NCBI GenBank assembly: GCA_038230695.1
Contig: JBBRMT010000001.1
Coordinates: 132-64,131 of the forward strand
Direction: 5' to 3'
Source of the DNA: Chloroflexia bacterium
GTDB taxonomy: Bacteria > Chloroflexota > Chloroflexia > QHBQ01
DNA length: 64,000 nucleotides
The position numbers were made by a program, and so were the translations under genes. This document shows positions 1 to 61,892 of this stretch, piece by piece (positions within the stretch are counted from its first letter, which is position 1; the number at the start of each line of letters is the position of its first letter). Under the pieces are notes generated by a model that was not told where the DNA came from, made no database searches, and worked only from the letters and a program-made list of their open reading frames with translations.

Positions 1-1
1 C

Positions 2-154
2 GATTGTGGCTACCACTGCGGGCAAACCAGCACCCCCACCGCTACCCATCAGCCGGAGCCGACCCATACCCCCGTCGCTACCCATCAGCCGGAGCCGACC
101 CATACCCCCGATTGTGGCTTCCATTGTGAACCGACGGCCACGCCCCAACCCTGA
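2..154 (+). CDS. 3' end (last ~50 codons) of a gene truncated by the window edge; Cys/His-rich Thr/Pro-linker protein (…DCGYHCG…THTPDCGFHCEPTATPQP*)
   Basis: Frame 2 reads without stops to a TGA at 152-154. It contains DCG(F/Y)HC motifs identical in style to the C-terminal tail of the anti-sigma at 1992-3446. An internal 36-bp direct DNA repeat encodes (V)ATHQPEPTHTP twice. Confidence 0.4.
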   Translation, partial: DCGYHCGQTSTPTATHQPEPTHTPVATHQPEPTHTPDCGFHCEPTATPQP

Positions 155-321
155 ACCGCAAACCGTGAACGCAACAACAAACCGCCGATGCGCCCTGGCA
201 GCAATGTCAGGGCGCGGGATACCGATAAGTAAGGTTAGAAATACAGTTATGTAGAGCAGCACGTATTGGCCTCGACTCCACTTGCTCAGGGTTATAAAAT
301 AGCCTGAAAGTCCCATAAGAA

Positions 322-352
322 AAAGCGAAGCAACTTGCCAACACCTACGTAT
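322..352 (+). promoter_or_regulatory. promoter-like motif AAAGCGAAGCAA-N11-CTACGTAT upstream of the Cys/His-repeat protein gene
   Basis: Motif of the same two blocks recurs at 1294-1323 (N10 spacer) upstream of the ECF sigma gene. A CGTA-containing -10-like block is typical of ECF-type promoters. Confidence 0.4.
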
Positions 353-461
353 ACGTTCATGTAAAGCGATTCCCCTGATGCACACGTAGGGACCGCCAGC
401 AGCGGCTGTTAACCTGACCAATCCAAGCGCAGCATAATCATAATCAATATAGGAGGATAAG

Positions 462-1109
462 ATGCCCAGCCAGATAAAGTTTTACATTCGTGTCGCCCTG
501 GTCGCCAGCGTAGTGATCGGCATCAGCATTATATTCATGCCGCAAGGAAATGCAGCCCAGGTTGGTACGCTTACCAACATTGTAACTGCGCCGCCCGATC
601 ACGGCCACCCCTGCCGCATCCTGAGCAGCGCCAATCCGCTGCCCCAACCAACTGGCACAGCCCAGGTTACGCCCATGCCGACCTGCACCCCTGAGCCTAC
701 CACCACCGAGCAACATTGCTGGCACGATTGTGGCACTCCTGAAGCGACCCGCACTCCTGATTGCGATGGCAACCACGAATGTCACACCCCAATGCCCACC
801 CCCATCGCCACTACGACCGAGCAGCATTGCTGGCACGATTGTGGCACTCCTGAAGCGACCCGCACTCCTGATTGCGATGGCAACCACGAATGTCACACCC
901 CAATGCCCACCCCCAACGCCACTACGACCGAGCAGCACTGCTGGCACGATTGTGGCACTCCTGAGCCTACCCACACCCCCGGCTGCGATGTCAACCACGA
1001 GTGCCAGACCCCTCCGCCAACCCATACTCCCCGCGCCACCCATACTCCCGAACCGACCCACACTCCCGAACCGACTCACGTCGTACTCAACCTTGGCTCC
1101 AACGGGTGA
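462..1109 (+). CDS. secreted Cys/His-rich repeat protein: signal peptide, then 3 tandem 37-aa repeats (TTTEQHCWHDCGTPEATRTPDCDGNHECHTPMPTP-I/N-A) and a THTPEPTHTP tail
   Basis: ATG preceded by AGGAGGATAAG. N-terminal hydrophobic signal peptide (VALVASVVIGISIIF…GNAAQ). Each repeat carries 4 Cys and 4 His. The repeats are near-identical at the DNA level. Confidence 0.6.
   Translation: MPSQIKFYIRVALVASVVIGISIIFMPQGNAAQVGTLTNIVTAPPDHGHPCRILSSANPLPQPTGTAQVTPMPTCTPEPTTTEQHCWHDCGTPEATRTPDCDGNHECHTPMPTPIATTTEQHCWHDCGTPEATRTPDCDGNHECHTPMPTPNATTTEQHCWHDCGTPEPTHTPGCDVNHECQTPPPTHTPRATHTPEPTHTPEPTHVVLNLGSNG
699..1031 (+). repeat. three tandem 111-bp near-identical direct repeats inside the CDS
   Basis: Unit starts at 699, 810 and 921. 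Units 1 and 2 are essentially identical and unit 3 diverges in its last third. Period 111 bp equals 37 codons. Confidence 0.8.
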
Positions 1110-1132
1110 TTTGCCAACCTACCCGCTAGCTC

Positions 1133-1168
1133 CCAATGCGCCCCGGCATCATTGCCAGGGCGCATTGG
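1133..1168 (+). terminator. hairpin CCAATGCGCCC-N14-GGGCGCATTGG (11-bp stem) 25 nt after the stop of the 462-1109 gene
   Basis: Perfect inverted repeat seen directly. Followed by ATTTCCCC, a weak U-tract. Confidence 0.45.
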
Positions 1169-1293
1169 ATTTCCCCACATCGGCTCGATTAGGTTAAGCG
1201 GAACCCGGCTCAAACTGCCGACTATTGTGGCACAAGTCAGCTTGACGCTAATCTACGCTACAAACACGCACTGGTTAGCAGGCAGTCAGAACA

Positions 1294-1323
1294 AAAGCGA
1301 AGCAAATCCCCAAAGCTACGTAT
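1294..1323 (+). promoter_or_regulatory. second copy of the AAAGCGAAGCAA-N10-CTACGTAT motif, ~75 nt upstream of the ECF sigma start
   Basis: Same two conserved blocks as at 322-352. A TATAAT-like GTTATAAT follows at ~1351-1358. Confidence 0.4.
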
Positions 1324-1398
1324 TAGAATATGGATGGGCAGCGTGTGTTATAATTTAATACTCAGGTTGGCAGGCCTGTTCGGTAAGGATTGCTGAAG

Positions 1399-1995
1399 AT
1401 GGTTTTGCAGCGGAGCGCAACTCTTGTGGTGAGCAGCACTACTGACCAACAATTCGACTTGGTCTTCAACCAATATGGCGGTTTCGTCTACACCGTTGCC
1501 CAGGCGCTGCTGAAGAACCGGCAGGACGCAGAAGACGCTGTGCAGGAAGTGTTCATCCGCGTATACCGTTCGTTGCACAATTATGACGAGGTTAAAGGCA
1601 ATATGGAGGCATGGCTGCGGGCCATTCTGCTCAATTATTGCCGCGACAAATGGCGCAAACGCAGTTTTCTCAGCATCCCCATCAGCTTGCTGGCGCATAA
1701 TCAGGACGGCGAGGATGGCAACTGGGAGGAGGCGTTGGCTAACGCAGGCGGGATCAGCAACCAGGAGGCAGGGCCGGACATGACTCTGCTGCGCCGCGAA
1801 TGTGAAGACGAACTGTGGGCGGCGGTCAATAGCCTGAGCGAGAAGCTGCGCCGCGTGGTGGTGCTACGCTACTATATGGACCTTAGCGATAATGCGGTGG
1901 CCGATACGCTCGGACTACCCGTAGGCACAATCTACTCGCGGCTGCACGCCGCGCATCGGCGCTTGCAGGCGCTGCTGTACCCTGGTGAAAAATGA
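1399..1995 (+). CDS. ECF-type RNA polymerase sigma-70 family factor
   Basis: Region 2 (VFIRVYRSLHNYDEVKGNMEAWLRAILLNYCRDKWRKR) and region 4 HTH (LRRVVVLRYYMDLSDNAVADTLGLPVGTIYSRLHAAHRRL). An alternative TTG start lies at 1390. The stop overlaps the next gene's start (ATGA). Confidence 0.85.
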   Translation: MVLQRSATLVVSSTTDQQFDLVFNQYGGFVYTVAQALLKNRQDAEDAVQEVFIRVYRSLHNYDEVKGNMEAWLRAILLNYCRDKWRKRSFLSIPISLLAHNQDGEDGNWEEALANAGGISNQEAGPDMTLLRRECEDELWAAVNSLSEKLRRVVVLRYYMDLSDNAVADTLGLPVGTIYSRLHAAHRRLQALLYPGEK

Positions 1996-3446
1996 TGAAC
2001 CACGAACAGACCCAAAGTGCGATTAGTCGCTACCTGCGTGGAGAGTTGACTGCCGATGAGCAACGCGACTTGCTTGCCCATGTCCGTGACTGCCCCCGCT
2101 GTGGCAGCGAACTGGCGATTGCCCGCCGCCTGCAACGCGAACTGCCGCAGGCTGCGCCCTATCGCGCCATCATCGGCGTGCCGCTACCTGCGGCGCTGGC
2201 TGCCAGGGTGCGGGCCAGCGTCGCCAGCCAGCAAGGGCGTAGACCACTCGGCTGGATGGAGTGGCTCTTCCCTGGAGCGCAGCCAAACCTGCGGCGCGGA
2301 GTAGTCAACGTGCTGGCCGTGTTCCTACTGCTGCTATCATTTGCCGTTGGCGTGGCCGCGCTTCGCAACGCCTTCCAACCCGGCCCGCCCCGCCCCGGCT
2401 ACCAGGCCAACTTCGCCTATGCCGCCGAGCAGGGACGCATCTATGTGTTCACCGATACCACTATCACCACCGATACGCTTACCTATCGTTGGGACTTTGG
2501 CGATGGTGGCAGCAGCAATCTACGCAACCCCCGTCACCACTATGGTGTGACCGGGGTTTATACCGTGGCAATGTCCGTAAGCGGGCCGCATGGAACTGGC
2601 GACAAGTCTCTGGGGGTGCAAGTTGGCCCGATCGTCGCCGTTACCGCCAGCCCTATGCCGACAGCGTTGCCCAGCGCCACTGTATATCTACCCGGCCTGT
2701 TTACCGCCACCCCCGCGCTACTGCCCATGCTGGATACCGCGACCCCACCAGCAACCGATACCCCGTCGCTAATTGGTCCGCCAAGCCCGACCTTGCCTTC
2801 CAGTAACCCGCTGCCATCCGCTACGACCACATCATCCGCACAACCGACCGTGCTGCTACCACAACCCAGCCCCACCCCGCCGCTATTGCCCAACTATGGG
2901 CCTACCGGCACGCCGCTGCCACAGCCGACTATTACCTCGCTACCCCAACCGAGCAATACGGCGTTGCCGCAACCAACTAGCACGCCAGTCACTGTGCCGA
3001 GCGATACGCCGCCGCCGCTAACCAAAACGCCAACCAGCGCCCCACTCACCACGCCCACCAGTGTGCCAAGTCATACGCAAGTGCCGACTGGCACGCCCAG
3101 GATTGTGCCAAGCGACACGCCATTGCCGCAGCCAAGCGACACGCCATTGCCGCAGCCGAGCGATACACCCGCTGCTACCCACACTCCCGATTGCGGCTTC
3201 CACTGCGGGCCGACCGAAACGCCGGTGCCACCGACCCATATGCCTACCGATACTCCGCCACCTACCGAGACCCCAATACCCACCCACGAGCCACCGTCCA
3301 CGCACACGCCAGGGCCACCTACGGCTACGCCTACGGCTACGCCGACCCACCATCCGCCACCGCCAACCTGGACACCACATGACCTGACTATGACACCAGG
3401 GCCGACCTGCACCCCTCATGAGGGCAATGAGCATGACAACTGCTGA
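1992..3446 (+). CDS. anti-sigma factor: N-terminal zf-HC2 zinc finger, one TM helix, PKD domain, long Pro/Thr/Ser-rich low-complexity region, and a Cys/His-rich tail (DCGFHCGP…HEGNEHDNC)
   Basis: HVRDCPRCGSELA motif (H-x3-C-x2-C). TM segment VVNVLAVFLLLLSFAVGVAAL. PKD signature WDFGDGGSS…YTVAMSVSG. Translationally coupled to the sigma gene (4-bp overlap). Confidence 0.8.
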   Translation: MMNHEQTQSAISRYLRGELTADEQRDLLAHVRDCPRCGSELAIARRLQRELPQAAPYRAIIGVPLPAALAARVRASVASQQGRRPLGWMEWLFPGAQPNLRRGVVNVLAVFLLLLSFAVGVAALRNAFQPGPPRPGYQANFAYAAEQGRIYVFTDTTITTDTLTYRWDFGDGGSSNLRNPRHHYGVTGVYTVAMSVSGPHGTGDKSLGVQVGPIVAVTASPMPTALPSATVYLPGLFTATPALLPMLDTATPPATDTPSLIGPPSPTLPSSNPLPSATTTSSAQPTVLLPQPSPTPPLLPNYGPTGTPLPQPTITSLPQPSNTALPQPTSTPVTVPSDTPPPLTKTPTSAPLTTPTSVPSHTQVPTGTPRIVPSDTPLPQPSDTPLPQPSDTPAATHTPDCGFHCGPTETPVPPTHMPTDTPPPTETPIPTHEPPSTHTPGPPTATPTATPTHHPPPPTWTPHDLTMTPGPTCTPHEGNEHDNC

Positions 3447-3470: not shown

Positions 3471-3496
3471 AAAAAGCCCCGCCTGGCGGGGCTTTT
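3471..3496. terminator. bidirectional rho-independent terminator AAAAAGCCCCGCC-TG-GGCGGGGCTTTT between convergent genes
   Basis: 9-bp GC stem flanked by an A-run and a T-run. Lies between the anti-sigma (+) stop and the GNAT (-) stop. Confidence 0.8.
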
Positions 3497-3515
3497 GGTT
3501 ATCGCTAACAGTCAG

Positions 3516-25744: not shown

Positions 25745-28700
25745 ATGTCAAAGTTTCTTACCCGCCTGCTGGTCGCTAGCCTGGTGTTGTTCGCTATCAG
25801 TATGTTGGCGTTGACCAGCGCAAGTTATTCCACCAGCGCTGCCCGCGCTACCGCCTTCAGCGCCGCCCCTGCGCCGAAGGTCGAGCAGGCGGTGCTGAAT
25901 GATACCGCCAATGGCAAGGTAGGCGCATTTGTGGTGCTGCTTGCCGATCAGGCCAACCTCAACGCCGCCTATAGCATGAAGGACAAGGATGCGCGGGGCT
26001 GGTATGTCTACAACACGCTCAAGAGCAAGGCCGACCAGACCCAGGGGCCAATCATCGCCTTGCTCACCAAGCAAGGGTTGAATTATCAGTCCTTCTGGGT
26101 TGCCAACGCCATCGTCGTCTACAACGGCAGCCGCGCTGTGGTTGACCAGCTTGCCGCCCGTAGCGATGTCCAGGCTATCGAGTCGAACGACTCGTTCATG
26201 GCGATCGAGCCGCCGCAGATTGCCAATGCCAAGCCAGCAAGCGTATCCTTGACCAAAGCAGTCTCCGCCGTCACCAGCGTAACCATTCCCTGGGGCATTA
26301 GTAACGTCAATGCTCCCCAGGTGTGGTCAATGGGCTACACCGGCCAGGGTATCGTGATTGGCAACGCCGACACCGGAATGCAATGGGACCACCCCGCGCT
26401 GAGGCCCCACTATCGGGGCTGGAATGGCAGTACCGCCGACCATAACTACAACTGGCACGACTCCATCCACGACTCCAGCGGCAACCAATGCGGCAACGAC
26501 TCGCAATTCCCCTGCGATGACCAGGGCCATGGCACGCACACCACCGGCACGACTGTTGGTGATGATGGCAATGGCTATGAAATCGGCGTAGCCCCCGGCG
26601 CGAAGTGGATCGGCTGCCGCAACATGGACGCTGGTAATGGCACGCCCGCTCGCTATACCGAGTGTTTCCAGTTCTTCATCGCGCCCACCGACCTGAACAA
26701 TCAGAATCCCAACCCTGCGCTCCGCCCCGACGTGATCAACAACTCGTGGGATTGCCCATCCAGCGAGGGCTGCGGTCAGCTAACCCTGCTGACGGTGGTA
26801 AACAATACGCGGGCAGCGGGCATTTTCGTTGAGGCATCGGCGCAGAACTCCGGCCCTGGCTGTTCATCGGTGGCGAACCCGCCCGCCATCTACGACTCCG
26901 CCTTCGCCACCGGTGCTTACGATATTGGCGACAACCTTGCGGGCTTCAGCAGCCGTGGCCCAGCCACCATGACCGGCCATCTAAAGCCCCAGATCAGCGC
27001 CCCCGGCGTACAGGTACTCTCCAGTGTACCGCATAACGCTTACTCTTCAAACTACAGTGGCACCTCGATGGCAGGCCCGCACGTGGTGGGGTCGGTCGCG
27101 CTGCTCTGGTCGGCCCGCCCTCAGCTTGAGCGAGACATTACTACTACCGAGCAGATACTGGAAAATACCGCCAATCCTAATGTCATAGTTTCGGGCGGAC
27201 CGCAGACCTGTGGTGGTATCCCCAGCAGCCAGATCCCCAACAACTCCTTCGGCTATGGGCGGGTTGATGCCCTTGCCGCCGTCAACTCCGTGCCGCTGCA
27301 AACTCCCACCCCGACTGTGACTGGCACACCGCCCACCGCGACCGCCACCAACACGGCTGCGCCTACCAATACGGCTGCGCCCACCAACACAACCGCGCCC
27401 ACCAACACAACTGCACCAGCAACTGCTACGCCAACGCAGACCCCCTGCCCCGCGTTCTGGGTCAACGACTCCAACATCCCCGGCCCGCGCATCGGCGCTG
27501 CTGCGGCAGGTGGCAACAGCGTCATCTTCGAGGCGGGCGGCGACGATGGCTCTGCCAGCCACATCTCCAATACCGCCGCAATGTACACCGGCTCTGGCGC
27601 ATGGCAGGCTATCCCCAATATGCCTATCTCCACGACTGATGCCTCCGGCCTCAGCAATGGCACCAACTTCTACGTGGTGGGTGGTAAGGATGCCAGCGGC
27701 CTGCCTACCGCCAACGTGCAGATTTACAACTCGATTAGCAACACCTGGACGATGGGAGCGCCCATCCCCACGCCCGTCTACGGCGCGGTCGGCGCTTATG
27801 TGTTTGGCATATACCTGTTCGGCGGTTGCACTGATGCCGCTTGCTCATCACCCGCCAGTATCACTCAGATATATGATCCCGTGAGAAACACCTGGGGGCC
27901 AGGGGTTGGCGTACCAGGCGGTCTGGCCCACGGCTTTGCCGCGCTGCTTGGCAGCAAGAGCATCTACGTCGTAGGTGGACTGGACAGCACGGGCGCGGCA
28001 ACCAACCGCCTACAGATCTACGACTTTGCCGATAATCGCTGGCACTCCACCGGACTCACTCAGTTGCCTAACACATGGTCGGGGATGGCGGGCGGTATAT
28101 TCAATGGTGAACTATACATCTTCGGCGGGGACACTAATGGCATCACCAACCGTACCATCAGCTACAACCAGACGCTCAACGCCTGGACCGAACGCGCCCC
28201 ACTTAATCTGGCTACTACTGATATGCAGGGTGGAAGCCTACATGGCAGCCTCTACATCGTCGGCGGCAGCACTGGCGGTAGCAACGCCACCAGCCGCGTC
28301 GAACGTTACTCGTCCAATTGCAACGGCACACCTACGCCGATTGCCACTGCCACGCCAGGCGGTTCGACCGACACTCCAACCCCGGCCAGCACTATGGGAC
28401 CACCGTCTCCAACCGTGGCTGCATCGCCGACTGCTGCGCCACCCTCGCCTACACCGTGCATTACAACGGGCGGCTGGAGTGCAATTGCCTCGATGCCCAC
28501 CACAGCAATACGCAATGCCGGTGTCTACTACCCGCCCAACGGCAAGTTCTACTCGCTTGGCGGCAGCACGGCCAAAGGCGCAAATACCGACATCCTCAAC
28601 CCTTATGAGTATGACCCCACCGCCAACACCTGGATTACCCGCAGCGCCAGCTTCGATAATCCCTTTGTGGACAATATGGTTGCCGCCGCCCTCACCGATA

Positions 28701-30085
28701 CCACCGGCACCCACATCTACACGGTTGGTGGCAGTCAAGGCAGCGCCTTCATTACCACCGCCGAGGTGCGTGTTTACGACCCAATTGCCAACACCATCAG
28801 CGTGCTGACCAGCGACCCGTGGACGCAGACGGTGATCAGCCCGAACATTCTACCGGGCGGGTTCGCGGTGATCAACAACACGTTGTACATTCTGGGCGGC
28901 ATCGCCCTCAACGCCGACCCTACGCAGCAGTACACCATCCACGACATCTGGCAGTTCGACCCCAACCGGGCAGCCGGGTCACGCTGGGTACACAAGCTGT
29001 CGCGTTTGCCAGTCGCTGAAGGCTACGTGCCAGCAGCGGGCCTGGGCAGCGACATCTACACCGGCGGCGGTGCGGTAATTACAAGCACATCGCTGATTGA
29101 TGTAGCCAACGCTTACTGGAACGATACCCCCACCGACACCATCTTCACGGTAACTCATGCGCTGACCGCAACTTCAAACACCCGTGGCGTAGATATGACC
29201 GACCCGATCAATGGGGATAAGATGTGGGTTCTGGGCGGCGGCTTCAATGGGCCTTATGCCGATGTGCAGATTTATGACCCTGCCACCGACACCTGGACCG
29301 CTGGGCCAGCGATGAGGCAGGCCCGCCGCAACTTCGCAGCCGATGCTAACAATGACCATATCTGGGTGGCAGGTGGCTATGACGCGGGCGGCAATCCGAT
29401 AGCAGCGGCGGAGGTATACAACCCATCCGCGCCCTGCGCTAGCCCCACCCCTGCACCTACTAACACACCTGCGGCAACCCCAACTGATTGCCCCAACCTG
29501 TTCGTGGATGTCAACGGCAACACCTTCTACACCGCAATCCACTACCTCAATTGCCGTGGCGTGGTCAACGGCCTCGATGCTACGCACTATAGCCCCGCTG
29601 GCACGTCTACTCGCGGCCAGTTCGCCAAGGTGGTGACGCTAGGCTTTGGCACGCCGCTATATACGCCGAGTGTGCAAGACTTTGTGGACGTGCCACCCAG
29701 CTACTTCGCCTACGTCTACATTGAGAGCGGCTACCACGCTGGTATCCTCAGTGGCTTCGACCCCGCCACCTGCACCGCGCACGGTCTGGCTACACCCTGC
29801 TACTTGCCTAACCTGCCCATCACGCGCGGCCAGCTTACCAAGCTAGTCGTCAATGCCGGTGGCTACACCCTGATTACGCCAACAGGTGGCACCCAGGACT
29901 TCGTTGACGTACCCACCACCAACGTCTTCTACGTTAGCATCGAGACCGCCTACCACAACGGCATCGTCCACGGCTACCCTGGTGGCCTCTACCTGCCCAA
30001 CGCCAACATCCGCCGCGACGAGATGGCCCAGATCGTCTACACTGGCATCATCAACCGACCACACTTAGCCCAGGACTTAGTGTGA
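25745..30085 (+). CDS. giant secreted S-layer-anchored protein: signal peptide, inhibitor-I9-like propeptide, subtilisin-like peptidase S8 domain, TP linker, ~2 Kelch-type beta-propellers, three C-terminal SLH domains
   Basis: S8 catalytic triad contexts VIGNADTGMQWDHPAL (Asp), HGTHTTGT (His) and GTSMAGPHVVG (Ser). Repeated Y(V/I)(V/F)GG Kelch blades. SLH domains FVDVNGNTFYTAIHYL…, FVDVPPSYFAYVYIESGYHAGI…, FVDVPTTNVFYVSIETAYHNGI…. Confidence 0.8.
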   Translation: MSKFLTRLLVASLVLFAISMLALTSASYSTSAARATAFSAAPAPKVEQAVLNDTANGKVGAFVVLLADQANLNAAYSMKDKDARGWYVYNTLKSKADQTQGPIIALLTKQGLNYQSFWVANAIVVYNGSRAVVDQLAARSDVQAIESNDSFMAIEPPQIANAKPASVSLTKAVSAVTSVTIPWGISNVNAPQVWSMGYTGQGIVIGNADTGMQWDHPALRPHYRGWNGSTADHNYNWHDSIHDSSGNQCGNDSQFPCDDQGHGTHTTGTTVGDDGNGYEIGVAPGAKWIGCRNMDAGNGTPARYTECFQFFIAPTDLNNQNPNPALRPDVINNSWDCPSSEGCGQLTLLTVVNNTRAAGIFVEASAQNSGPGCSSVANPPAIYDSAFATGAYDIGDNLAGFSSRGPATMTGHLKPQISAPGVQVLSSVPHNAYSSNYSGTSMAGPHVVGSVALLWSARPQLERDITTTEQILENTANPNVIVSGGPQTCGGIPSSQIPNNSFGYGRVDALAAVNSVPLQTPTPTVTGTPPTATATNTAAPTNTAAPTNTTAPTNTTAPATATPTQTPCPAFWVNDSNIPGPRIGAAAAGGNSVIFEAGGDDGSASHISNTAAMYTGSGAWQAIPNMPISTTDASGLSNGTNFYVVGGKDASGLPTANVQIYNSISNTWTMGAPIPTPVYGAVGAYVFGIYLFGGCTDAACSSPASITQIYDPVRNTWGPGVGVPGGLAHGFAALLGSKSIYVVGGLDSTGAATNRLQIYDFADNRWHSTGLTQLPNTWSGMAGGIFNGELYIFGGDTNGITNRTISYNQTLNAWTERAPLNLATTDMQGGSLHGSLYIVGGSTGGSNATSRVERYSSNCNGTPTPIATATPGGSTDTPTPASTMGPPSPTVAASPTAAPPSPTPCITTGGWSAIASMPTTAIRNAGVYYPPNGKFYSLGGSTAKGANTDILNPYEYDPTANTWITRSASFDNPFVDNMVAAALTDTTGTHIYTVGGSQGSAFITTAEVRVYDPIANTISVLTSDPWTQTVISPNILPGGFAVINNTLYILGGIALNADPTQQYTIHDIWQFDPNRAAGSRWVHKLSRLPVAEGYVPAAGLGSDIYTGGGAVITSTSLIDVANAYWNDTPTDTIFTVTHALTATSNTRGVDMTDPINGDKMWVLGGGFNGPYADVQIYDPATDTWTAGPAMRQARRNFAADANNDHIWVAGGYDAGGNPIAAAEVYNPSAPCASPTPAPTNTPAATPTDCPNLFVDVNGNTFYTAIHYLNCRGVVNGLDATHYSPAGTSTRGQFAKVVTLGFGTPLYTPSVQDFVDVPPSYFAYVYIESGYHAGILSGFDPATCTAHGLATPCYLPNLPITRGQLTKLVVNAGGYTLITPTGGTQDFVDVPTTNVFYVSIETAYHNGIVHGYPGGLYLPNANIRRDEMAQIVYTGIINRPHLAQDLV

Positions 30086-40465: not shown

Positions 40466-41041
40466 ATGGATAGTGCGGTACTAGAGCAAGCGCGAGCCGG
40501 TGATGCAGCGGCGTTCGCCGTGATCTACGAAACCTACAATCTGGCGATCCACAACTACGCCTATCGGCTGCTGGGCAACCAGGAGCAGGCCGACGATACC
40601 ACCCAGGAGACCTTCATCAAGGCGTACCAGAGCATCGGCAGCCTGCGTAACGAGGCGGGCTTGCAGGCGTGGCTATATCGCATCGCCTCCAACCTCTGCC
40701 TCGACGCGCTGCGGCGGCGCAAGGTGGTAGCGTGGCTGCCGTTGCGCGAGGAGCATAGCCGCGATGATACCCCGCCGCACGGGGTCAGCCTCGAACTCGT
40801 CGCGCCGCACGCCGATTTTGCCGCCGATTTCGCCGAGGCCGATGCGGTTCACGCCGTGCTAGCCCAGTTGCCCCCCCCACTGGCCGCCTGCCTGGTGTTG
40901 CGTAGCGTCGAGGGCTTCTCCTGCGACGAGATTGCCGAAATCCTGAAGATACCGCGTGGTACTGTCTGGAGCAGACTAGCGCGGGCGCGGGAACTGTTTG
41001 TCGCCGCCTACAATCATAGTGGGTCAGCGGGGGGCAAGTAG
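40466..41041 (+). CDS. ECF-type RNA polymerase sigma-70 family factor
   Basis: Region 2 QETFIKAYQSIGSLRNEAGLQAWLYRIASNLCLDALRRRK and region 4 LVLRSVEGFSCDEIAEILKIPRGTVWSRLARAREL. GGAGGT SD. Confidence 0.85.
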   Translation: MDSAVLEQARAGDAAAFAVIYETYNLAIHNYAYRLLGNQEQADDTTQETFIKAYQSIGSLRNEAGLQAWLYRIASNLCLDALRRRKVVAWLPLREEHSRDDTPPHGVSLELVAPHADFAADFAEADAVHAVLAQLPPPLAACLVLRSVEGFSCDEIAEILKIPRGTVWSRLARARELFVAAYNHSGSAGGK

Positions 41042-41044
41042 CAA

Positions 41045-44000
41045 GTGGGCTGTCCAGCATATAAAGACCTGCTCTCGCGCTACATTGACAACGAACTAAG
41101 CAAGCGTGAGCGCGAGGAGCTACAGGCGCACCTGCAAGTATGCAGCCGGTGCAGCCACGCGCTGGCTAAGTACCGGCAGATGGAAGCATTGCTCGGCAGC
41201 AACGCAACCAAGCCTGCGCCCAAGCCCAACCCTGCCGTGCGCGACAAGGTGTTGGCCGCCATCGAGCAACAGCAGCGGCAGCGCAGCCCGCTCAGTCGCA
41301 TGATGCATGGCAATAGCACCCGCCGCTTCAGCATCGCACGGGTAGCCGGGCTGGTGGTAATCGTCGGCGCGTTGAGCATCACTGCCGTGTTGCTGGCGCA
41401 GAACCCGGCAGCGCGGGGACTGTTGGGCCACGTTGCCGACACGGCGGGCGAACCCTCACCCACCCCCGATGTCGCCTTGACCAAAGTGGCGCAGGCCAAC
41501 GCTACAGCGTTGGCCGTGGCGGCTCTGCCACCGGCGCACATCACCAGCGCTGCGCCAGTAAGCAGCCAGAATCAGCTGCTCAAATCCGCCGCCGTGCCGC
41601 TCGATGCCGCCATTGCTATCCGCTTCGATGCGCCCATGGAGCGGGCTTCAGTAGAGAGCGCCTGGCAGATCAGCCCGCCCATCCCCGGCAGCTTCGATTG
41701 GGTGGCCGACAACGAGGTTCACTTCATTCCCTACAACCTGGGCTACATCCCCGCAGTTACCTATACTCTGATGTTGAGCAGCGCCGCCCATGTGCTGGGC
41801 GGCGGCTCACTGGCCGCACCCTTCACCTACACCTGGGCGACCATCGCGCCGCCCGCGTTGGTTGGATATGACCCTCCAAACTTGTCCGCCAATGTGGCGC
41901 TCACCCAGAGCATCGCCCTTAGTTTCAGCCAGCCGATGCAGCATCCCAGCGTGCAGATGGCTTTCAGCGTCAGCCCCAGCATCGCGGGCAAGTGGGCGTG
42001 GAACGCAGATAACCAGCAGGCCAGCTTCACCCCCGACGCGAGCTGGCAGCCGAACACCGCATATGCGATCAGCCTTAGCCATATGGCCGCCAGCGCCGCC
42101 GCTGTGCCGCTGGGCAAGGATGCCAACTGGCAGTTCGTCACCACCGATGTTGCGAAGGTCACGTTTAGCGCCGCGCAGCCGGGGCTAACCCTGCCGCTAA
42201 TCGCGCTGCCAGCCGGGCTGAGTCACTACAACATTCCGTTCAGCTTCAGCCAGCCTGATAACAGCATTAGCCAGCTTGTCTTCCAGCTATCCGCCGTCAG
42301 CGGCGGCGACATTGCCGCCCTACCGAAGCTGAAGCTGCTGGCGAACAGCGCTGTTGCCGTAAACGGCGCGACTAGCTACAGCGGCACGCTGACCCTGCAA
42401 CTGCAAGTCGGGGTCTATTTGCTGGCCGCGCCGACCGGCCAGCAGGTCTATTTGCTGGTGGGCGATGAGCAGCTAGTGGCGAAGCAGGCAGGCAGCCAAC
42501 TGCTGTTGTGGACCACCCGCAACGGCAAGCCAGTAGCCGGACAGGAGTTGCAGATATACGATGCTGCCCACACCCTGCTTGATGCGGGGCGCAGCAGGGC
42601 GGATGGCCTTTACCTCACCAACCTGAATCCAGGGGCAACCCCGGCCCTGGTGTTGGCGATAGACGGCAAGGTGGCGCGGGCGGTTGCCTTTATCGGTGGG
42701 CAACCTGCCAGTGGTGGCAACGTGCAGATATATGCCTACACTGATCGCGCCGCCTACACTGCTGGCGATGCCCTGAACTTCAAGGTGGTGGTACGCTCCG
42801 GCGATGCCACTGCCTACCAGTTGCCGTCGGTTGATGCCAGCATCAACATGGCCCTTGCCGATGCCAGCGGCGCTAACCTCGCCAGCGTAATGTTGCGCCC
42901 CGACAGCTACGGGACGGTGGGCGGCAGCTTCCCCCTCGCGCCTACGTTGCGCCATGGCTGGTACACCCTCAGCGCGGCGACCCTGGGGCAGCAGCAGCAA
43001 CTAATGGTATATGTCTACCAACAGGGCGCGGTTTCCCAACCAATCACCATCAGCGAAACCTCACCGCTAACCGCCACCGCAGGCAGCTTGAGTGTCACCC
43101 TGAACAAGAGCGCGTACAACGTTGGCGACACTGCCACCCTGACCATCAGCAATGCGCCCACCGCCAACACGCCGGTACTGTTGACCGTGGAGCGTGGCGG
43201 TTTCATCCTATACCGTAGCGGGGTAATCAGCGGCAGCGCCACCATTGAGTTGCCGATTAGCGCAACTATGGCTCCAGCGGCGCGGGTGCAGGTTAGCCTG
43301 CTGACTACCAACGGGCCGATCAGCACGGGAGCCAATCTACACGTGCCACTGGGCCACACCCTCGCAGTGGTTATAACCCCTGACTCCAACGCCAGGCCGG
43401 GGCATAATGCCATCTTCACCGTATCGGTAAGCGACAATCAAGGCCAGCCGCTACCTGCAATCCTATCTCTCAGCGTGGGCGATGCCCCACCCAGCAGCGA
43501 CATCAGCGCCGCTTTCTATCCCACCATGGTTATGCCTGCGCCGCTATATAGCGCCGCGCTAGCCTCACCCTCCACTCAAGATGTAGTAAGGCTGGGAGCA
43601 GACTCCCTCCCCCAAGATAGGGGAGGGTTGGCTGCAAACCCCCTCCCCCAAGATAGGGGAGGGTTGGCTGCAAACCCCCTCCCCCAAGATAGGGGAGGGT
43701 TGGGGAGGGGGGTCGTGCCAGCCACCCAGCTTGCCTACTGGGGCGGCAGCCTGCTGGTGGGCGCAAGCGGGGTGGCGACTTATAGCGTAGCCCTGCCCAA
43801 CACGGCACGGGGCGACTGGTGGGCCACGGCGCGGGTGGTCGGCGCAGACAACCGCTTCGGCCAGGTCAGCGCCAGCTTCGCGCTCACTTCCCCGCTGCAG
43901 GTTGTGCCACTTGCGCCCACCAGCTTCGTGCAGGGCGATCGGGTCAATATCGGCGCGACGCTGATAAACCATACCAATGCGCCAGTCAGCGGCCAGATAA

Positions 44001-45958
44001 CCCTGAGTTCCGATGGCCTGACCTTGATTGACACCAAACCGGCGCAGCAGAGCGTCTCGATTGCGGCAGGGCAATCACAGACCATCACCTGGCGGGTGCA
44101 GGTGCGCCGCGCCCGCGCAGTGCGGATGGTGTTCGACTTCTTTGCCGATGATGCTAGCAACAAGGGACTGGCGATGCCGCTGGATAGCTCGGTGGATGTC
44201 AACGCTGCGGTGCAGCCCGCCACGCCGGAGCAGGTCAGCGCCAGCGCAGGGATGACCGCTGCCAGCGCGACGGTGACGGCGACGATGCAGCCAGAACCAG
44301 CCGCCGACCTGAGCAGTATGGAGATCGAGGTTGACCCCTCGATCGCATCGGCCCTGATTGGCAGCCTGGGGGCGGAGCTTGATGCCAATGCTTCAGGCAG
44401 TGAGGCGATGAGCGGGCTGGCGGCGGAGGCGGCCCAGTTGGATGATGCCTTCAGCCGCTTGCAGTACAGCAAGGCGGCTTTGCCAGGCTTCACCGAGGCA
44501 GTAGGCGCGGCGATGCAGGGCGTGTATACCAACCAGCAACCCGATGGCGGCTGGGGTGACAGTGGCGCGGGCAGTGAGGTGTGGACAACCGCTTTCACCC
44601 TGCACAATCTGGCCCGCATCCGCGATGCCGGGCAGGAAGTGGATACCCAGGTAACGGCGCGGGCGGTTGCCTGGCTGCGTCGCCAGTTGCCGCAGATGAC
44701 TGACGAGCAACGCGCTTATAGCTACTACGTGCTGGCTCTGTACGGCGCAGCGGATCTCAGTGAGGTGCGCCTGCTGCTGGCCCAGCCGCTCGACCACTTT
44801 GGCGCGGCGGCCCTGATCCTGGCGCTGCAACGGTTGGGCGACCGTGAGGCGGCGGTGTTGCTAGCGCATCAACTTTCGGTAGCGGCGACTATCAGCAATG
44901 GTGAACTGGCTAGCTGGCAGTCCGATGCGGTGGGCAGCGATGTGGCAACCGCCACCGCAGTCGAAGCCTTGCTCCAAACTGTGCCTAGCGATCCGCTAAT
45001 CAGTCGCGGGGTGAGCGGGCTGCTTGCGGCGCGGGTGAGCCGCCGCTGGGCAACGACGCGTTCGAGCAGCACGGCGTTTGCCACCCTGAACGATTACGCG
45101 ATTGAAACCAGCGATGGCCGCAACAGTGGCGTGCCATTGCGGGTCAACAACGATGTGCCATCACCACCGCAACCCGTTCACAATCCGATTGGCGGTTACA
45201 ACTTCAAGCTATACCTTAATGGTACGCTACTAACCGAGGTGGATGTGGATCCCAGCAACCTCAGCGCGGCGCATCGCCTGATCAGCCTGTCCACCGATAA
45301 GCTGCAAGCGCAGAATGTCATCCAGATAGTGAGTAGCGGCGGCAATCCCCTCTATTATGCGATTACCACCCATTATCGCCACAGCATCAACGCCAGTTTT
45401 ACTGCCAGCGACGATGATGCCCGCCGCTTCAGTCTGGAGAATCCCCGCGCCATCCCCTCAAACGCTAGCAACATTCTGAGCATCAGCCGCAGCTACCAGA
45501 ACCTCGACCATCCTGATGCCAACCAGATCGTTGTTGGCGATACGCTACGAGTCTTGCTCAATGTACAGGTGAGCAGCGATGCCGCGCCAGTGCTACAGGC
45601 GGTTGTCAACGATCCGCTGGCCGCAGGCTTCACCTTGATTGGGCCAGAGCAGGCAGCCCGTCCGCTGCGTAGTATGGGCAGCCGAGGTAGCCCTGATGGT
45701 GGCTTTAGCAGCGACAGCGCGATCGCCAACAGCGTCTACGCCAGCTTCAACCACGATGCGGGCAGCGTCAGCTTCAACGTGGCGCAGATGCAGCCGGGCG
45801 CAACCTATAACTTTAGCTATCTGGAGCAGGCCACCATAAGCGGCGACTTTTCCGCCCTGCCTGCGTCGGCCTATCCCGCCCAGCAACCCGATAGCGTGGC
45901 AACCTCAGCCAGCAACCTGATCAGCATAAATGCGCCCAGCAGCAAGGGACAGGAGTGA
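41045..45958 (+). CDS. anti-sigma factor (zf-HC2, single TM) fused to a ~1550-aa extracytoplasmic region: Big_5/SbsA-type Ig-like domains, macroglobulin (MG)-like domains, and an alpha-2-macroglobulin thioester-domain-like alpha/alpha toroid lacking the CGEQ thioester, ending in an A2M receptor-binding-like domain
   Basis: N-terminus MGCPAYKDLLSRYIDNELSKREREELQAHLQVCSRCSHAL (H-x3-C-x2-C). TM FSIARVAGLVVIVGALSITAVLLA. TED-like YTNQQPDGGWGDSGAGSEVWTTAFTLHNLARIRDAGQEVDTQVTARAVAWLRRQ (compare human A2M …YDGSY…NTWLTAFVLKTFAQAR…ALIWLSQRQ). The position expected for CGEQ reads SGSEA. GTG start 3 nt after the sigma stop. Confidence 0.7.
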   Translation: MGCPAYKDLLSRYIDNELSKREREELQAHLQVCSRCSHALAKYRQMEALLGSNATKPAPKPNPAVRDKVLAAIEQQQRQRSPLSRMMHGNSTRRFSIARVAGLVVIVGALSITAVLLAQNPAARGLLGHVADTAGEPSPTPDVALTKVAQANATALAVAALPPAHITSAAPVSSQNQLLKSAAVPLDAAIAIRFDAPMERASVESAWQISPPIPGSFDWVADNEVHFIPYNLGYIPAVTYTLMLSSAAHVLGGGSLAAPFTYTWATIAPPALVGYDPPNLSANVALTQSIALSFSQPMQHPSVQMAFSVSPSIAGKWAWNADNQQASFTPDASWQPNTAYAISLSHMAASAAAVPLGKDANWQFVTTDVAKVTFSAAQPGLTLPLIALPAGLSHYNIPFSFSQPDNSISQLVFQLSAVSGGDIAALPKLKLLANSAVAVNGATSYSGTLTLQLQVGVYLLAAPTGQQVYLLVGDEQLVAKQAGSQLLLWTTRNGKPVAGQELQIYDAAHTLLDAGRSRADGLYLTNLNPGATPALVLAIDGKVARAVAFIGGQPASGGNVQIYAYTDRAAYTAGDALNFKVVVRSGDATAYQLPSVDASINMALADASGANLASVMLRPDSYGTVGGSFPLAPTLRHGWYTLSAATLGQQQQLMVYVYQQGAVSQPITISETSPLTATAGSLSVTLNKSAYNVGDTATLTISNAPTANTPVLLTVERGGFILYRSGVISGSATIELPISATMAPAARVQVSLLTTNGPISTGANLHVPLGHTLAVVITPDSNARPGHNAIFTVSVSDNQGQPLPAILSLSVGDAPPSSDISAAFYPTMVMPAPLYSAALASPSTQDVVRLGADSLPQDRGGLAANPLPQDRGGLAANPLPQDRGGLGRGVVPATQLAYWGGSLLVGASGVATYSVALPNTARGDWWATARVVGADNRFGQVSASFALTSPLQVVPLAPTSFVQGDRVNIGATLINHTNAPVSGQITLSSDGLTLIDTKPAQQSVSIAAGQSQTITWRVQVRRARAVRMVFDFFADDASNKGLAMPLDSSVDVNAAVQPATPEQVSASAGMTAASATVTATMQPEPAADLSSMEIEVDPSIASALIGSLGAELDANASGSEAMSGLAAEAAQLDDAFSRLQYSKAALPGFTEAVGAAMQGVYTNQQPDGGWGDSGAGSEVWTTAFTLHNLARIRDAGQEVDTQVTARAVAWLRRQLPQMTDEQRAYSYYVLALYGAADLSEVRLLLAQPLDHFGAAALILALQRLGDREAAVLLAHQLSVAATISNGELASWQSDAVGSDVATATAVEALLQTVPSDPLISRGVSGLLAARVSRRWATTRSSSTAFATLNDYAIETSDGRNSGVPLRVNNDVPSPPQPVHNPIGGYNFKLYLNGTLLTEVDVDPSNLSAAHRLISLSTDKLQAQNVIQIVSSGGNPLYYAITTHYRHSINASFTASDDDARRFSLENPRAIPSNASNILSISRSYQNLDHPDANQIVVGDTLRVLLNVQVSSDAAPVLQAVVNDPLAAGFTLIGPEQAARPLRSMGSRGSPDGGFSSDSAIANSVYASFNHDAGSVSFNVAQMQPGATYNFSYLEQATISGDFSALPASAYPAQQPDSVATSASNLISINAPSSKGQE
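43605..43703 (+). repeat. 2.7 tandem copies of a 36-bp unit (CCCTCCCCCAAGATAGGGGAGGGTTGGCTGCAAACC) in frame within the anti-sigma/A2M-like CDS; each unit can form an 8-bp GC hairpin (CCCTCCCC/GGGGAGGG)
   Basis: Seen directly; copies start at 43605, 43641 and 43677 and encode LPQDRGGLAANP repeats. Confidence 0.8.
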
Positions 45959-61175: not shown

Positions 61176-61198
61176 TGGCAGGAGATGGGAGTTTTAGG

Positions 61199-61846: not shown

Positions 61847-61892
61847 GGGTGAATAACGAATCGCTCTTCTAAGGATGATAAAGGAGTTAGCC

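Follow-up and report, generated by a model that had tools for sequence, protein, structure and literature searches.

An ECF sigma/anti-sigma factor locus with neighbouring Cys/His-rich exported proteins in a soil Chloroflexia bacterium

Organization of the locus

The window analysed here is a 64,000-nt stretch of DNA from a soil Chloroflexia bacterium, whose first part (positions 1-3446) holds the 3' end of a gene named P1, the gene P2, an ECF sigma factor gene and an anti-sigma factor gene, with all the features described in an initial annotation found where it had placed them. In silico, these genes are resolved into three separate predicted transcription units, namely P1, P2 and sigma/anti-sigma. 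Each unit has the bipartite motif CGAAG-N16/17-CGTAT on its 5' side and a hairpin of its own on its 3' side.

P1 is cut by the window edge (2..154, forward strand), and translation of frame 2 (nt 2-151, stop at 152-154) gives a Pro/Thr/His tail, predicted to be disordered, that contains two DCG[FY]HC motifs, reads DCGYHCG...TPDCGFHCEPTATPQP and ends in DCGFHCEPTATPQP before the stop. Full-length orthologues are present in two related loci, L001 (P0001, 956-2020) and L003 (483-1922), where the protein is built of a signal peptide, two globular repeats of about 75 aa and a Cys/His tail with the terminus DCG[FY]HC[EQ]PT[AV]TP[QR]P. Elsewhere in Chloroflexia, GH18/peptidoglycan hydrolases, S8 peptidases, L,D-transpeptidases and PQQ dehydrogenases carry this globular module as a fusion. 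The P1 stop is followed by a terminator-like hairpin (191..214, forward strand) that has a 12-bp stem of the CGCCCTGGCAGC/GTCAGGGCG type and no T-run; it is kept in L001 and L003, and also 3' of the upstream gene in L006, L010 and L012. A TlpA-like thiol reductase gene adjoins P1 in L001 only and not in L016, and no metal-homeostasis gene is found near the locus.

P2 (462..1109, forward strand), recognized from its ORF and sequence features, is preceded by an AGGAGG ribosome-binding site and encodes an exported protein of 215 aa that contains 14 Cys and 18 His. Its signal-like helix (aa 1-25), with a G-N-A/A-Q site, is followed by a head (DHGHPC...PTCTPEPT), by three repeats of the form [HCWHDCG + CD(G/V)NHEC] and finally by a tail with THTPEP. 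In silico, P2 is predicted to be a P1-like signal peptide plus tail that does without the globular module, and its AF2 model has a mean pLDDT of 47, being confident for the N-terminal helix only. The three tandem 111-nt/37-aa repeats span 686..1018 (forward strand), where a repeat search scores the copies at 100, 92 and 78%, while TRF delimits 2.8 copies at 705-1012 with 92% matches. The initial annotation had assigned 4 Cys and 4 His to each of the three; this is exactly the content of copies 1 and 2, but copy 3 departs from it (CHTP to CQTP). A strong hairpin follows the P2 stop (1133..1168, forward strand; region -39.9 kcal/mol, z = -4.1).

The sigma factor (1399..1995, forward strand) is a protein of 198 aa with domain profile matches to Sigma70_r2 (6.6e-18) and r4_2 (7.1e-10). 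Its ORF also opens at TTG 1390, but ATG 1399 is the likely start because of an AAGGA ribosome-binding site and the gene calls of the orthologues. It belongs to a sharply bounded clade of 14 proteins with at least 61% identity, the next protein being at 37%, and in all readable members the sigma gene is followed by an anti-sigma factor with zf-HC2, PKD and a Pro/Thr-rich tail. The two genes had been described as translationally coupled. Indeed, the sigma stop overlaps the anti-sigma start in the window (ATGATG/TGA at 1992-1997), but the overlap is confined to the closest relatives; in more distant orthologues, 6-42 nt separate the two genes.

The anti-sigma factor (1992..3446, forward strand), delineated from domain profiles and sequence, does combine zf-HC2 (aa 5-37) and PKD (aa 145-211), as previously annotated. 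In particular, the zinc motif H4...H30-x3-C34-x2-C37 precedes a transmembrane segment at about aa 104-124, and the PKD domain is followed by a Pro/Thr tail of about 270 aa (aa 212-484). In silico, this translates into a predicted topology with a cytoplasmic Hx3Cx2C domain, a single transmembrane helix and an extracytoplasmic PKD domain. A lone DCGFHCG motif (TPDCGFHCG; 3189..3209, forward strand) was located in the tail by motif search, and the DNA around it is related to the tail DNA of P1 and P2. The motif occurs once in the window, twice in variant form in L006 and is absent from L003 and L010; as it is not kept in orthologues, it was rejected as a required sensor element. The C-terminal Cys loop C-TPHEGNEHDN-C (3408..3443, forward strand) is instead kept as P-x-C-T-P-x(8-11)-C in the window, L003, L006, L007 and L010. 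An intrinsic terminator detected by hairpin search (3472..3497; A-tract, stem GCCCCGC/GCGGGGC, TTTT) sits where the anti-sigma and GNAT genes converge.

A shared promoter motif and a conserved neighbourhood

An ECF-type motif, AAAA(G)CGAAG-N16/17-CGTAT, lies 5' of P1, P2 and the sigma operon. Alignment and motif search place the P2 promoter at 321..352 (forward strand), with AAAAGCGAAG as the -35 element (CGAAG at 326-330), N17 and the -10 element CGTAT (348-352), and the sigma-operon promoter at 1293..1323 (forward strand), with AAAAGCGAAG (CGAAG at 1298-1302), N16 and CGTAT (1319-1323). The 11-mer AAGCGAAGCAA occurs in the window at 323 and 1295 only. The bipartite motif has 3 matches in the window, where 0.18 are expected, and 14 over 139 kb, where 0.47 are expected, 12 of them at the expected intergenic positions. 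In L003/L016 and L001 it precedes all three units, P1, P2 and sigma, and it can be followed through orthologous loci as far as 61% sigma identity; 5' of sigma it is not recognisable in L007 and is absent in L010 and L014.

These data raise the question of whether the sigma factor controls P1 and P2 or merely lies next to them. The initial proposal of a dedicated signalling unit that may control its decorated neighbours is supported by the shared motif and the conserved neighbourhood, which make such control by the ECF/ZAS pair probable. The alternative is that only gene order is inherited, with sigma regulating itself and not P1 or P2, and the shared upstream sequence being a remnant of duplication or gene conversion. 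Indeed, the upstream regions of P1 and P2 are paralogous over more than 100 nt, so that their promoter likeness may be an outcome of duplication and the sigma promoter alone offers an independent comparison. Moreover, DNA repeats are common to the P1, P2 and anti-sigma tails, which makes sequence exchange within the locus real, and a single clade holds all loci. However, the sigma upstream region has nothing in common with the P1 and P2 promoters except the two boxes at the 16-17 nt ECF spacing, and in L003, L006, L008, L012 and L013 the boxes of the sigma promoter are kept while the spacers have fully diverged. Gene order without control is considered improbable.

Two further elements accompany these promoters. 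The box AAATAGCC[CT][AG]AAAGTCC[CT]A (297..315, forward strand) precedes the -35 element in alignments of the P1 and P2 promoters and is limited to these two; it could serve an additional regulator or be left over from the P1/P2 duplication. Upstream of sigma, the extended -10 element TGTTATAAT (1346..1354, forward strand), read from the sequence, is probably an additional promoter of the housekeeping type that maintains a basal level of sigma/anti-sigma expression; TG[CT]TATAAT is kept in L003, L006, L008 and L012, and TGTATAAT is found in L013.

The neighbourhood is conserved across the sigma clade (61-99% identity). A Pro/Thr/His-rich secreted gene lies upstream of the sigma/anti-sigma pair in 7 of the 8 independent loci with readable upstream sequence (window, L003, L006, L012, L010/11, L013 and L014/15), the pair of L007 (Ca. 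Chloroheliales, 63% sigma identity) having no such gene upstream. Cys pairs are present in the upstream gene of the window, L003, L006 and L010, and co-occurrence of the repeat family with the ECF pair in relatives was found. As all loci come from one narrow clade, this synteny is in part inherited and not independent.

The Cys/His tails

The tails of P1 and P2 are arrays of Cys-pair mini-motifs, Cx3C and C-D-x2-5-E-C, joined by T-H-x-P-E-P and P-M-P linkers. The motif-bearing genes had been presented as three consecutive genes with the same motifs, and neither point holds: they are not consecutive because the sigma gene sits between P2 and the anti-sigma gene, and DCG[FY]HC is found in the edge gene and the anti-sigma factor, while HCWHDCG and CD..NHEC are restricted to P2. 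No further occurrence of the Cys/His motifs was found in the 64 kb outside this locus. Profile searches, including that of the 37-aa repeat, matched no known domain and no known metal-binding family, and the tail family was seen in this clade only across 5.8e9 clusters, 1.84e9 HMMER representatives, GTDB genomes and JGI metagenomes. Small Cys-pair/His motifs of this kind, set in Pro/Thr-rich exported proteins, are almost absent elsewhere.

Repeat number, order and type shift fast between close relatives, as illustrated by the P2 proteins of the window and L003, which share 56% identity, versus 96% for prfB. Together with the confinement of the family to a tiny clade and the predicted disorder of the tails, this would fit a fast-evolving, low-complexity surface decoration (e.g., stalks shaped by phages or predators) whose motifs have no specific chemistry. 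This reading is judged quite unlikely, since motif cores are under purifying selection while linkers vary. Indeed, in nine EQHCW H[DE]CGTP copies (window, L001 and L003), all six variable DNA sites fall at third codon positions and the changes are synonymous only, which identifies the motifs as real coding features. In addition, the 63%-identity clade has Cys-pair motifs as well, L010 carrying at least 3 x TTTAEPCGDECQTPEP.

Known systems and proposed function

The pair resembles Bacillus subtilis sigma-W/RsiW in combining an ECF sigma factor with a single-pass ZAS anti-sigma factor, RsiW being subject to regulated intramembrane proteolysis, and in a predicted autoregulatory promoter with a CGTA-type -10 element and a predicted regulon composed of small proteins that are exported or reside in the membrane. 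For the window sigma factor, the top NCBIfam and PDB matches include SigW models, but its 95.9 bits lie far under the equivalog cut-off of 209. The sigma-W consensus is TGAAAC-N16-CGTA, and RsiW is controlled by proteolysis. In contrast, the -35 box of the window is CGAAG, and the extracytoplasmic part of its anti-sigma factor is made of PKD, a 270-aa Pro/Thr spacer and the Cys loop. The best solved-structure match is Mycobacterium tuberculosis SigE (9m9d_F, 62.9 bits) and the best NCBIfam match is the SigE family of M. tuberculosis SigE/RseA and Streptomyces (TIGR02983, 101 bits, under its cut-off of 141.55), both pertaining to envelope stress, although the anti-sigma factors of that family are soluble or otherwise built. 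Streptomyces sigma-R/RsrA shares the Hx3Cx2C zinc motif of the anti-sigma domain, but RsrA is a soluble, cytoplasmic, direct sensor of thiol oxidation, whereas the window protein spans the membrane; an RsrA-type thiol switch was rejected (TIGR03988, 16.3 bits versus a cut-off of 62.5). Among membrane-bound class I anti-sigma domains, about 48% have the zinc motif, which may play a structural part, and ZAS domains at the membrane often are structural and not sensory (PMC7406223). The pair looks like an ordinary envelope-signalling switch that appears to drive P1 and P2.

The tails resemble disordered metal-binding regions in composition and predicted disorder, with Cys pairs that occur in clusters alongside His, Asp, Glu and Met. 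Disordered His/Cys/Met-rich metal binders include the SlyD C-terminal tail, Hpn and the bacterial metallothioneins SmtA/MymT. CopI is described as having disordered His/Met-rich extracytoplasmic copper-capture regions (PMC13308877). Domain and sequence searches gave no homology of the tails to SlyD, Hpn, SmtA/MymT or CopI, which also differ in being mostly cytoplasmic and in that none sits among Pro/Thr linkers or is known to be controlled by an ECF sigma factor. Cx3C(G) spacing is found in copper sites such as CuA (C-x-E-x-C-G, cytochrome oxidase subunit II) and Sco (CxxxC), and in the twin-Cx3C Tim10/DDP zinc fingers. The likeness of the tails to these proteins is at motif level only (Cx3C, often then Gly, with His nearby), and the tails have neither a cupredoxin or thioredoxin fold nor a helix-loop-helix; P2 of L003 gives a weak Tim10/DDP match (13.8 bits, under the cut-off of 22.3).

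The composition of the tails hints at binding of thiophilic metals, with disulfide cross-linking as an equal rival. For the locus as a whole, we put at about even odds an autoregulated ECF/ZAS switch with a regulon of two exported proteins whose tails capture metals or buffer thiols. A signal at the cell surface would inactivate the anti-sigma factor, most likely through regulated proteolysis of the RsiW/RseA kind, and the freed sigma factor would then transcribe its own operon, in a positive autoregulation, together with P1 and P2. P1 would be anchored in the wall through its globular module, and the tails of P1 and P2 would cover the envelope with Cys, His, Met and acidic sites, most plausibly capturing thiophilic metal ions (Cu, possibly Zn) or serving as a sacrificial thiol buffer. 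The anti-sigma tail and Cys loop would meet the same chemistry and act as input. What speaks against a metal role is that neither a metal-homeostasis gene near the locus nor a match to a known metal-binding family was found.

A less probable, though still credible, reading keeps the regulatory unit and makes the Cys pairs structural, as local disulfide staples or as disulfide cross-links between molecules, either of which would stiffen or tie together Pro/Thr-rich stalks in the wall or sheath; in that case the regulon would serve to reinforce the envelope, in the manner of sigma-W or sigma-E, with no metal-handling role. Consistent with this, Cys always come in close pairs, each mature protein has an even number of them (14 in P2; 10 or 18 in P1 orthologues, signal peptide excluded), and paired Cys in the oxidising extracytoplasmic space may just form disulfides. 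Moreover, the P1 module is common to wall-active enzymes, the closest characterised sigma factors (M. tuberculosis SigE and B. subtilis SigW) are those of envelope stress, and the variants PCGDEC, CGDAC and CGADC have no His, so that His is not universal. A plain disulfide, however, needs no His, Asp or Glu, of which every Cys-pair loop holds at least one, nor the invariable C-D...E-C of the C-type motif, and the linkers are also rich in His and Met.

Organization of the locus

Four genes lie on the forward strand within positions 1-3446 of the window. As read from the sequence, they quite probably form an autoregulated unit made of an ECF sigma factor, its membrane-bound ZAS anti-sigma factor and a two-gene local regulon of exported proteins with Cys/His-rich tails. 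Systems of this kind are very common, and the locus is a lineage-specific variant whose unusual traits are the orphan, fast-evolving tails of the effectors and the sequence kinship between the tail of the sensor and those of the regulon.

The first gene (P1) is cut by the window edge, so that only its 3' end is present (2-151, frame 2, + strand; translated as DCGYHCGQTSTPTATHQPEPTHTPVATHQPEPTHTPDCGFHCEPTATPQP before the stop codon), and the body of the protein is known from orthologues only. Full-length P1 comprises a P2-like signal peptide, two repeats of about 75 aa with the pattern GGLA.FGYP[IL][ST][DE]E...DGK.Y.VQ[YW]FER.R[FY]E.HPE...VLLGLLG, a head region and a Cys/His tail. The second gene (P2; 462-1109, + strand) starts at ATG 462 after an AGGAGG ribosome-binding site and encodes 215 aa, including 14 Cys, 18 His, 33 Pro and 38 Thr, with an N-terminus formed by K/R, a hydrophobic helix and a G-N-A/A-Q site. 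Since P1 and P2 share the signal peptide, the head region (DHHC...PTCTPEPT) and the Cys/His tail, P2 can be regarded as P1 without its globular part. The P2 tail contains a tandem array at 705-1012 with a period of 111 nt (2.8 copies, 92% matches; Tandem Repeats Finder), and a repeat search places three in-register copies at 686-1018 (100, 92 and 78% identity). The repeat unit is TTTEQ-HCWHDCG-TPEATRTP-DCDGNHECH-TPMPTPIA.

The initial annotation had described three consecutive genes carrying the same Cys/His motifs. The motif-bearing genes and the secreted repeat protein are indeed present, but the genes are not strictly consecutive and the motifs are partitioned among them: DCG[FY]HC is found in the edge gene and in the anti-sigma gene, HCWHDCG and CD..NHEC in P2. 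None of the three motif types occurs in the rest of the 64 kb. Because Pro/Thr-rich DNA stays open in several frames, the reading frame was checked: among nine copies of EQHCWH[DE]CGTP from the window and from two related loci (L001 and L003), all 6 variable DNA sites fall at third codon positions, 5 of them synonymous, and the copies of DCG[FY]HC follow the same codon-position pattern. The cores of the tail motifs are under purifying selection, with linkers and copy number free to vary.

The sigma factor and its membrane-spanning partner

The third gene (1399-1995, + strand) matches Sigma70_r2 (6.6e-18) and Sigma70_r4_2 (7.1e-10) and scores 92.5 bits against the ECF superfamily model TIGR02937 (cut-off 42.9); by these profiles the product is assigned as an ECF (group 4) sigma-70 factor. 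Scores against the specific NCBIfam equivalogs (SigW, SigE, RpoE, SigH and others) are all below cut-off, as for SigW (95.9 bits, cut-off 209) and the SigE family (101 bits, cut-off 141.55). ATG 1399 is likely the start, because of an AAGGA ribosome-binding site and the starts called in the orthologues. The clade is isolated, with 14 relatives at 61% identity or more, among which P0122 is 99% identical to the window sigma, and a next best match at 37%. The anti-sigma gene follows directly, in what is predicted to be a common transcript, and the overlap of the two reading frames (ATGATG/TGA, 1992-1997) agrees with the translational coupling proposed initially; the order sigma then anti-sigma is kept in 9/9 orthologous loci.

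The anti-sigma factor (1992-3446, + strand) is composed of a zf-HC2 domain (aa 5-37), one hydrophobic segment (VVNVLAVFLLLLSFAVGVAAL, around aa 104-124), a PKD domain (aa 145-211) and a 270-aa Pro/Thr tail. The zf-HC2 and PKD domains recognized at the outset are both matched by profile, the former with 33.6 bits (cut-off 22.2), the latter by PKD_4 (PF18911) and PKD (PF00801) with 4e-12 and 9.6e-09 and by ColH PKD structures with 4.3e-13. The residues H30-x3-C34-x2-C37 reproduce the Hx3Cx2C signature of the ZAS/class I anti-sigma domain, indicative of a putative zinc- and sigma-binding domain, and H4 (C3 in the related loci L007, L010 and L013) is a candidate fourth ligand. A single hydrophobic segment followed by PKD and tail gives a single-pass topology with an extracytoplasmic domain, as in proteins of the RsiW/RseA type. 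No site-1 or site-2 protease gene linked to the anti-sigma was found in the window, and the literature yielded nothing relevant on PKD-containing anti-sigma factors in Chloroflexi or Chloroheliales. The pairing is usual for the phylum, in which 72% of the ECF sigmas are paired with class I anti-sigma domains (PMC7406223).

As to what the anti-sigma may sense, a soluble cytoplasmic thiol switch of the RsrA type was considered and rejected. The RsrA model (TIGR03988) gives 16.3 bits with a cut-off of 62.5, and the transmembrane segment and the large extracytoplasmic part also contradict the likeness, RsrA being soluble and cytoplasmic whereas the protein encoded here spans the membrane. The zinc motif is present in about 48% of the class I anti-sigma domains that are membrane-bound, where its role may be structural, as in RsiW (PMC7406223). 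The membrane-spanning architecture, the failure of the RsrA model and this possible structural role elsewhere make the cytoplasmic zinc motif an unlikely sensor. The tail contains one TPDCGFHCG and terminates in PTCTPHEGNEHDNC before the stop codon. Its DCGFHCG is not conserved, being absent from L003 and L010, with VCGDAC and DCGHEC present in L006 and GCGADC in L008. The DNA around it is related to that of the P1 and P2 tails, which suggests exchange between the tails of P1, P2 and the anti-sigma. The extreme C-terminus, P-x-C-T-P-x(8-11)-(G)C, is kept across the whole clade, and this C-terminal Cys loop, placed after the PKD domain and an extended spacer of about 270 residues, is the best candidate for the input element.

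A predicted promoter common to P1, P2 and the sigma operon

Alignment of the intergenic regions revealed a bipartite motif, AAAA(G)CGAAG-N16/17-CGTAT(A/T), on the + strand. It is located upstream of P2 in the window (326-352) and likewise in L003 and L001, upstream of P1 in L003 and L001, and, as CGAAG-N16-CGTAT, upstream of the sigma operon in the window (1298-1323), where it is kept in five further orthologues (L003, L006, L008/9, L012 and L013). A CGT-type -10 element and such a spacing are typical of ECF promoters, and in silico the sigma operon is predicted to be preceded by an autoregulatory promoter. In the window, GCGAAG-N14-18-CGTAT has 3 matches with 0.18 expected, and the 11-mer AAGCGAAGCAA occurs at 323 and 1295 only. 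Over the 139 kb searched, CGAAG-N16/17-CGTAT has 14 matches with 0.47 expected, 12 of which immediately precede P1, P2 or sigma on the + strand. In L016 (20.6 kb) the motif matches at the three expected sites and, by chance, at one intragenic position, and nowhere else. Among the sigma orthologues the boxes alone are retained, around spacers that bear no relation to one another, a pattern that reads as the footprint of function. The promoter regions of P1 and P2 are paralogous over more than 100 nt, therefore only their likeness to the sigma promoter counts as independent evidence. Upstream of sigma in L010, L014 and L007 no such motif is recognizable. The notion of a dedicated ECF unit that controls its own decorated proteins, advanced in the initial annotation, thus finds in silico support in the motif shared by P1, P2 and sigma. 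About 20 nt downstream of the sigma-operon motif, a conserved extended -10 element, TGTTATAAT (1346-1354, + strand), suggests a second, housekeeping promoter for basal expression.

Hairpins mark the ends of the units after P1 (191-214, +), after P2 (1133-1168, +) and after the anti-sigma gene (3476-3492 plus TTTT). In the window (191-214 and 1140-1161), L003, L001, L006, L010 and L012, each P1- or P2-type gene has a hairpin of the type GCCC[TC]GGCA-loop-[TG][GC]CAGGGC after its stop codon, which in L010 lies within the hairpin itself. As the hairpin has no T-run, it may act as a terminator that is unusual or depends on a factor, or else contribute to RNA stability. A further box, AAATAGCC[CT][AG]AAAGTCC[CT]A, is situated just upstream of the -35 element in the P1 and P2 promoters and not in the sigma promoter (window 297-315; L003 ~2015-2035 and ~363-381; L001 ~2112-2130 and ~836-854); it could be the site of a second regulator or a remnant of the duplication. 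In L003, positions 1-330, upstream of the P1 promoter, hold two direct copies of a ~95-nt element, CTCCGGTGGAGGGT.TGCGTCATGTTCTTGCAG.GCAAGCGTTCAGTAGGGGCGAAC.GTTGTTCGCCCTGGTTGGGTGTGCCAGAGCGTGACGC, which may be a small repeat or MITE-like element.

Distribution and divergence

Relatives of P2 are practically absent from the collections searched. A word-indexed search of 5.8e9 clusters returned one true match, P0001, and a full HMMER search of 1.84e9 representatives returned P0001 alone together with one spurious Asp/His-rich protein. A degenerate DNA scan for TPDCG[FY]HC in 185,579 species genomes (GTDB) gave one true locus and two chance matches, and in JGI metagenomes ten matches, all of them chance and outside any P/T-rich ORF. 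P0001 is the P1 orthologue encoded on L001, a forest-soil contig syntenic with the left edge of the window, where the P2 orthologue comes next. The true GTDB locus, L003, belongs to 'Chloroflexi bacterium GL140_3_metabat_63' and, with L016, is fully syntenic: P1, P2, sigma and anti-sigma are followed by prfB, which is oppositely oriented. When the window is compared with L003, identity decreases from prfB (96%) to sigma (88%), the N-terminal part of the anti-sigma (78%), P2 (56%) and the anti-sigma tail (53%). The repeat content is reshuffled among relatives, P1 carrying 5 x TPGCDSSNNECHTP and 3 x TPDCGFHC in L003 and 1 and 3, respectively, in L001, and the P2 of L003 mixing HCEHHCG, HCWHECG, CDSSNHEC and 3 x HCWHDCG.

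Downstream of sigma, every readable locus encodes an anti-sigma with zf-HC2, a transmembrane segment, PKD and a P/T tail. Upstream, on the same strand as sigma, L006 (sigma 83% identical) shows the end of a protein with TPSCEHQCGTP and terminal TPGCEHQCQPTPTQQP before the stop, L012 (86%) a THTPEPTHTP tail end, L010/11 (63%) at least three repeats of TTTAEPCGDECQTPEP, and L013 (61%) a P/T/R/His tail. L014/15 (65%), whose sigma is a second paralogue in the metagenome-assembled genome of L008, has a 226-aa protein whose signal peptide is of the P2 type and whose P/T tail is rich in His, Met and Trp and includes three Cys. No such neighbour is present in L007 (Ca. Chloroheliales, 63%). Genes for Cys/His or P/T/His tails therefore co-occur with the ECF pair in relatives. 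Because all loci belong to one clade, this synteny is not independent evidence. The assembly that holds L008 and L014, GCA_038239995.1, has two paralogous sigma/anti-sigma modules, whose sigmas are 72 and 65% identical to that of the window; one module follows a His/Met/Trp-rich P2-like gene without Cx3C motifs.

The globular module of P1

The two-repeat module of the P1 orthologues (P0001 aa 45-220; L003 nt ~615-1140) is very frequent in Chloroflexia, with 2189 matches at E<1e-3, and has a confident AF2 fold (pLDDT >90). It matches neither Pfam nor PDB sequences, its fold has no match in the PDB (Foldseek, best E 0.31), and neither profile nor fold relates it to LGFP or other known wall-binding repeats. 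Its fusion partners comprise GH18/peptidoglycan hydrolases, S8 peptidases, YkuD L,D-transpeptidases, PQQ sugar dehydrogenases and other exported enzymes; judged by these partners, the sole basis of the assignment, the module is an uncharacterised domain that probably serves to anchor proteins to the wall or surface. The nearest relatives of the module (P0003-P0005, 61-78% identity) have P/T/G tails without Cys, and the one contig examined, L005 with the gene for P0003, lacks both an ECF neighbour and a promoter motif of the proper spacing. The Cys/His tail is thus a recent, lineage-specific addition.

Possible chemistry of the tails

Neither P2 nor the P1 edge fragment matches a Pfam or NCBIfam family at E<=1, and no Pfam or NCBIfam profile of a described metal-binding or Cys-rich domain family matches the 37-aa repeat or the tails. 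The sole sub-threshold match is that of the L003 P2 to Tim10/DDP (13.8 bits, cut-off 22.3). The low AF2 pLDDT (35-50 for the P0001 tail; mean 47 for P2, whose model is unusable) leads us to read the P1 and P2 tails as disordered stalks. Their constant features are short Cys pairs, Cx3C (usually C-G-x-x-C or H-C-W-H-D-C-G) and C-D-x(2-5)-E-C, with at least one His, Asp or Glu in every loop, and linkers that repeat T-H-x-P-E-P and P-M-P; the distant paralogue in L014 is rich in His, Met and Trp. Copper is classically bound by Cys, His and Met. Extracytoplasmic regions that are disordered and rich in His and Met and that capture copper exist, as indicated for CopI (PMC13308877). By analogy, this composition and precedent support, and do not show, the binding of copper or another thiophilic metal by the tails. 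That the tails capture metal or buffer thiols is a reasoned conjecture and, on balance, somewhat unlikely. About equally likely, the Cys pairs could form structural disulfides or disulfide cross-links, a reading that accords just as well with the even Cys counts and close pairing, the existence of His-free variants (PCGDEC) and the oxidising location.

Other candidates were rejected. Attachment of c-type haem is at odds with the lack of CxxCH, the spacings being Cx3C and Cx4-6C; a His follows the second Cys of the pair in some copies only. A multi-core RiPP precursor does not fit, as P2 has a Sec-type signal peptide and no modifying enzymes are nearby. A conserved TlpA-like thiol reductase partner was also discarded, since such a gene adjoins P1 only in L001, is not so placed in L016, and has its window paralogue 58 kb away from the locus. 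The L001 gene (92-676, -) encodes a lipoprotein-type TlpA/ResA-like thioredoxin with a WCPPC active site, divergent from the adjoining P1. Its paralogue in the window (61175-61846, +; 39% identical) is followed by a rhodanese-domain gene, the region spanning 61175-62399.

It would be quite unlikely, although the most far-reaching reading, that the Cys-pair/His/acidic mini-motifs constitute a new disordered surface module for metal capture (probably of copper) or redox buffering, coupled to an ECF switch based on substrate mimicry. In such a switch, the anti-sigma would bear the same kind of stalk as the coat proteins and a terminal Cys loop, and occupancy, oxidation or cleavage of its stalk would report the state of the sigma-induced coat. 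If the regulatory link holds, the locus represents a compact, fully delimited ECF regulon in poorly studied soil Chloroflexia, with three promoters, two effectors and one sensor, and a defined motif that could be reused in an orthogonal sigma/promoter pair. Its effectors, disordered surface stalks studded with Cys and His, form an orphan class. Were the tails to bind copper or zinc, or to cross-link, they would be a new type of extracytoplasmic metal or redox buffer and the locus would illustrate an anti-sigma whose sequence modules recur in its own regulon; were the motifs plain disulfide staples, this would be an ordinary envelope-stress module with lineage-specific cargo.

Other features of the window

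The whole window (1-64000) contains no tRNA genes and no Rfam families at the gathering threshold. A second ECF sigma is encoded at 40466-41041 (+), and a 1637-aa protein starts 4 nt later, the region extending to 45958. The N-terminus of this protein has a zf-HC2 anti-sigma domain (HLQVCSRC) and one transmembrane helix, and its extracytoplasmic part consists of Big_5 and a complete bacterial alpha-2-macroglobulin (MG2, bait region, A2M, bMG10). With this fusion of an anti-sigma to a protease trap, the pair (40466-45958) could be an ECF switch that senses proteases; nothing was found in the literature on the combination of anti-sigma and alpha-2-macroglobulin. The gene at 25745-30085 (+) encodes an exported protein of 1446 aa, in which an S8 subtilase is joined to Kelch propellers and, at the C-terminus, to an SLH domain, the last of which indicates SLH-type wall anchoring in this organism.
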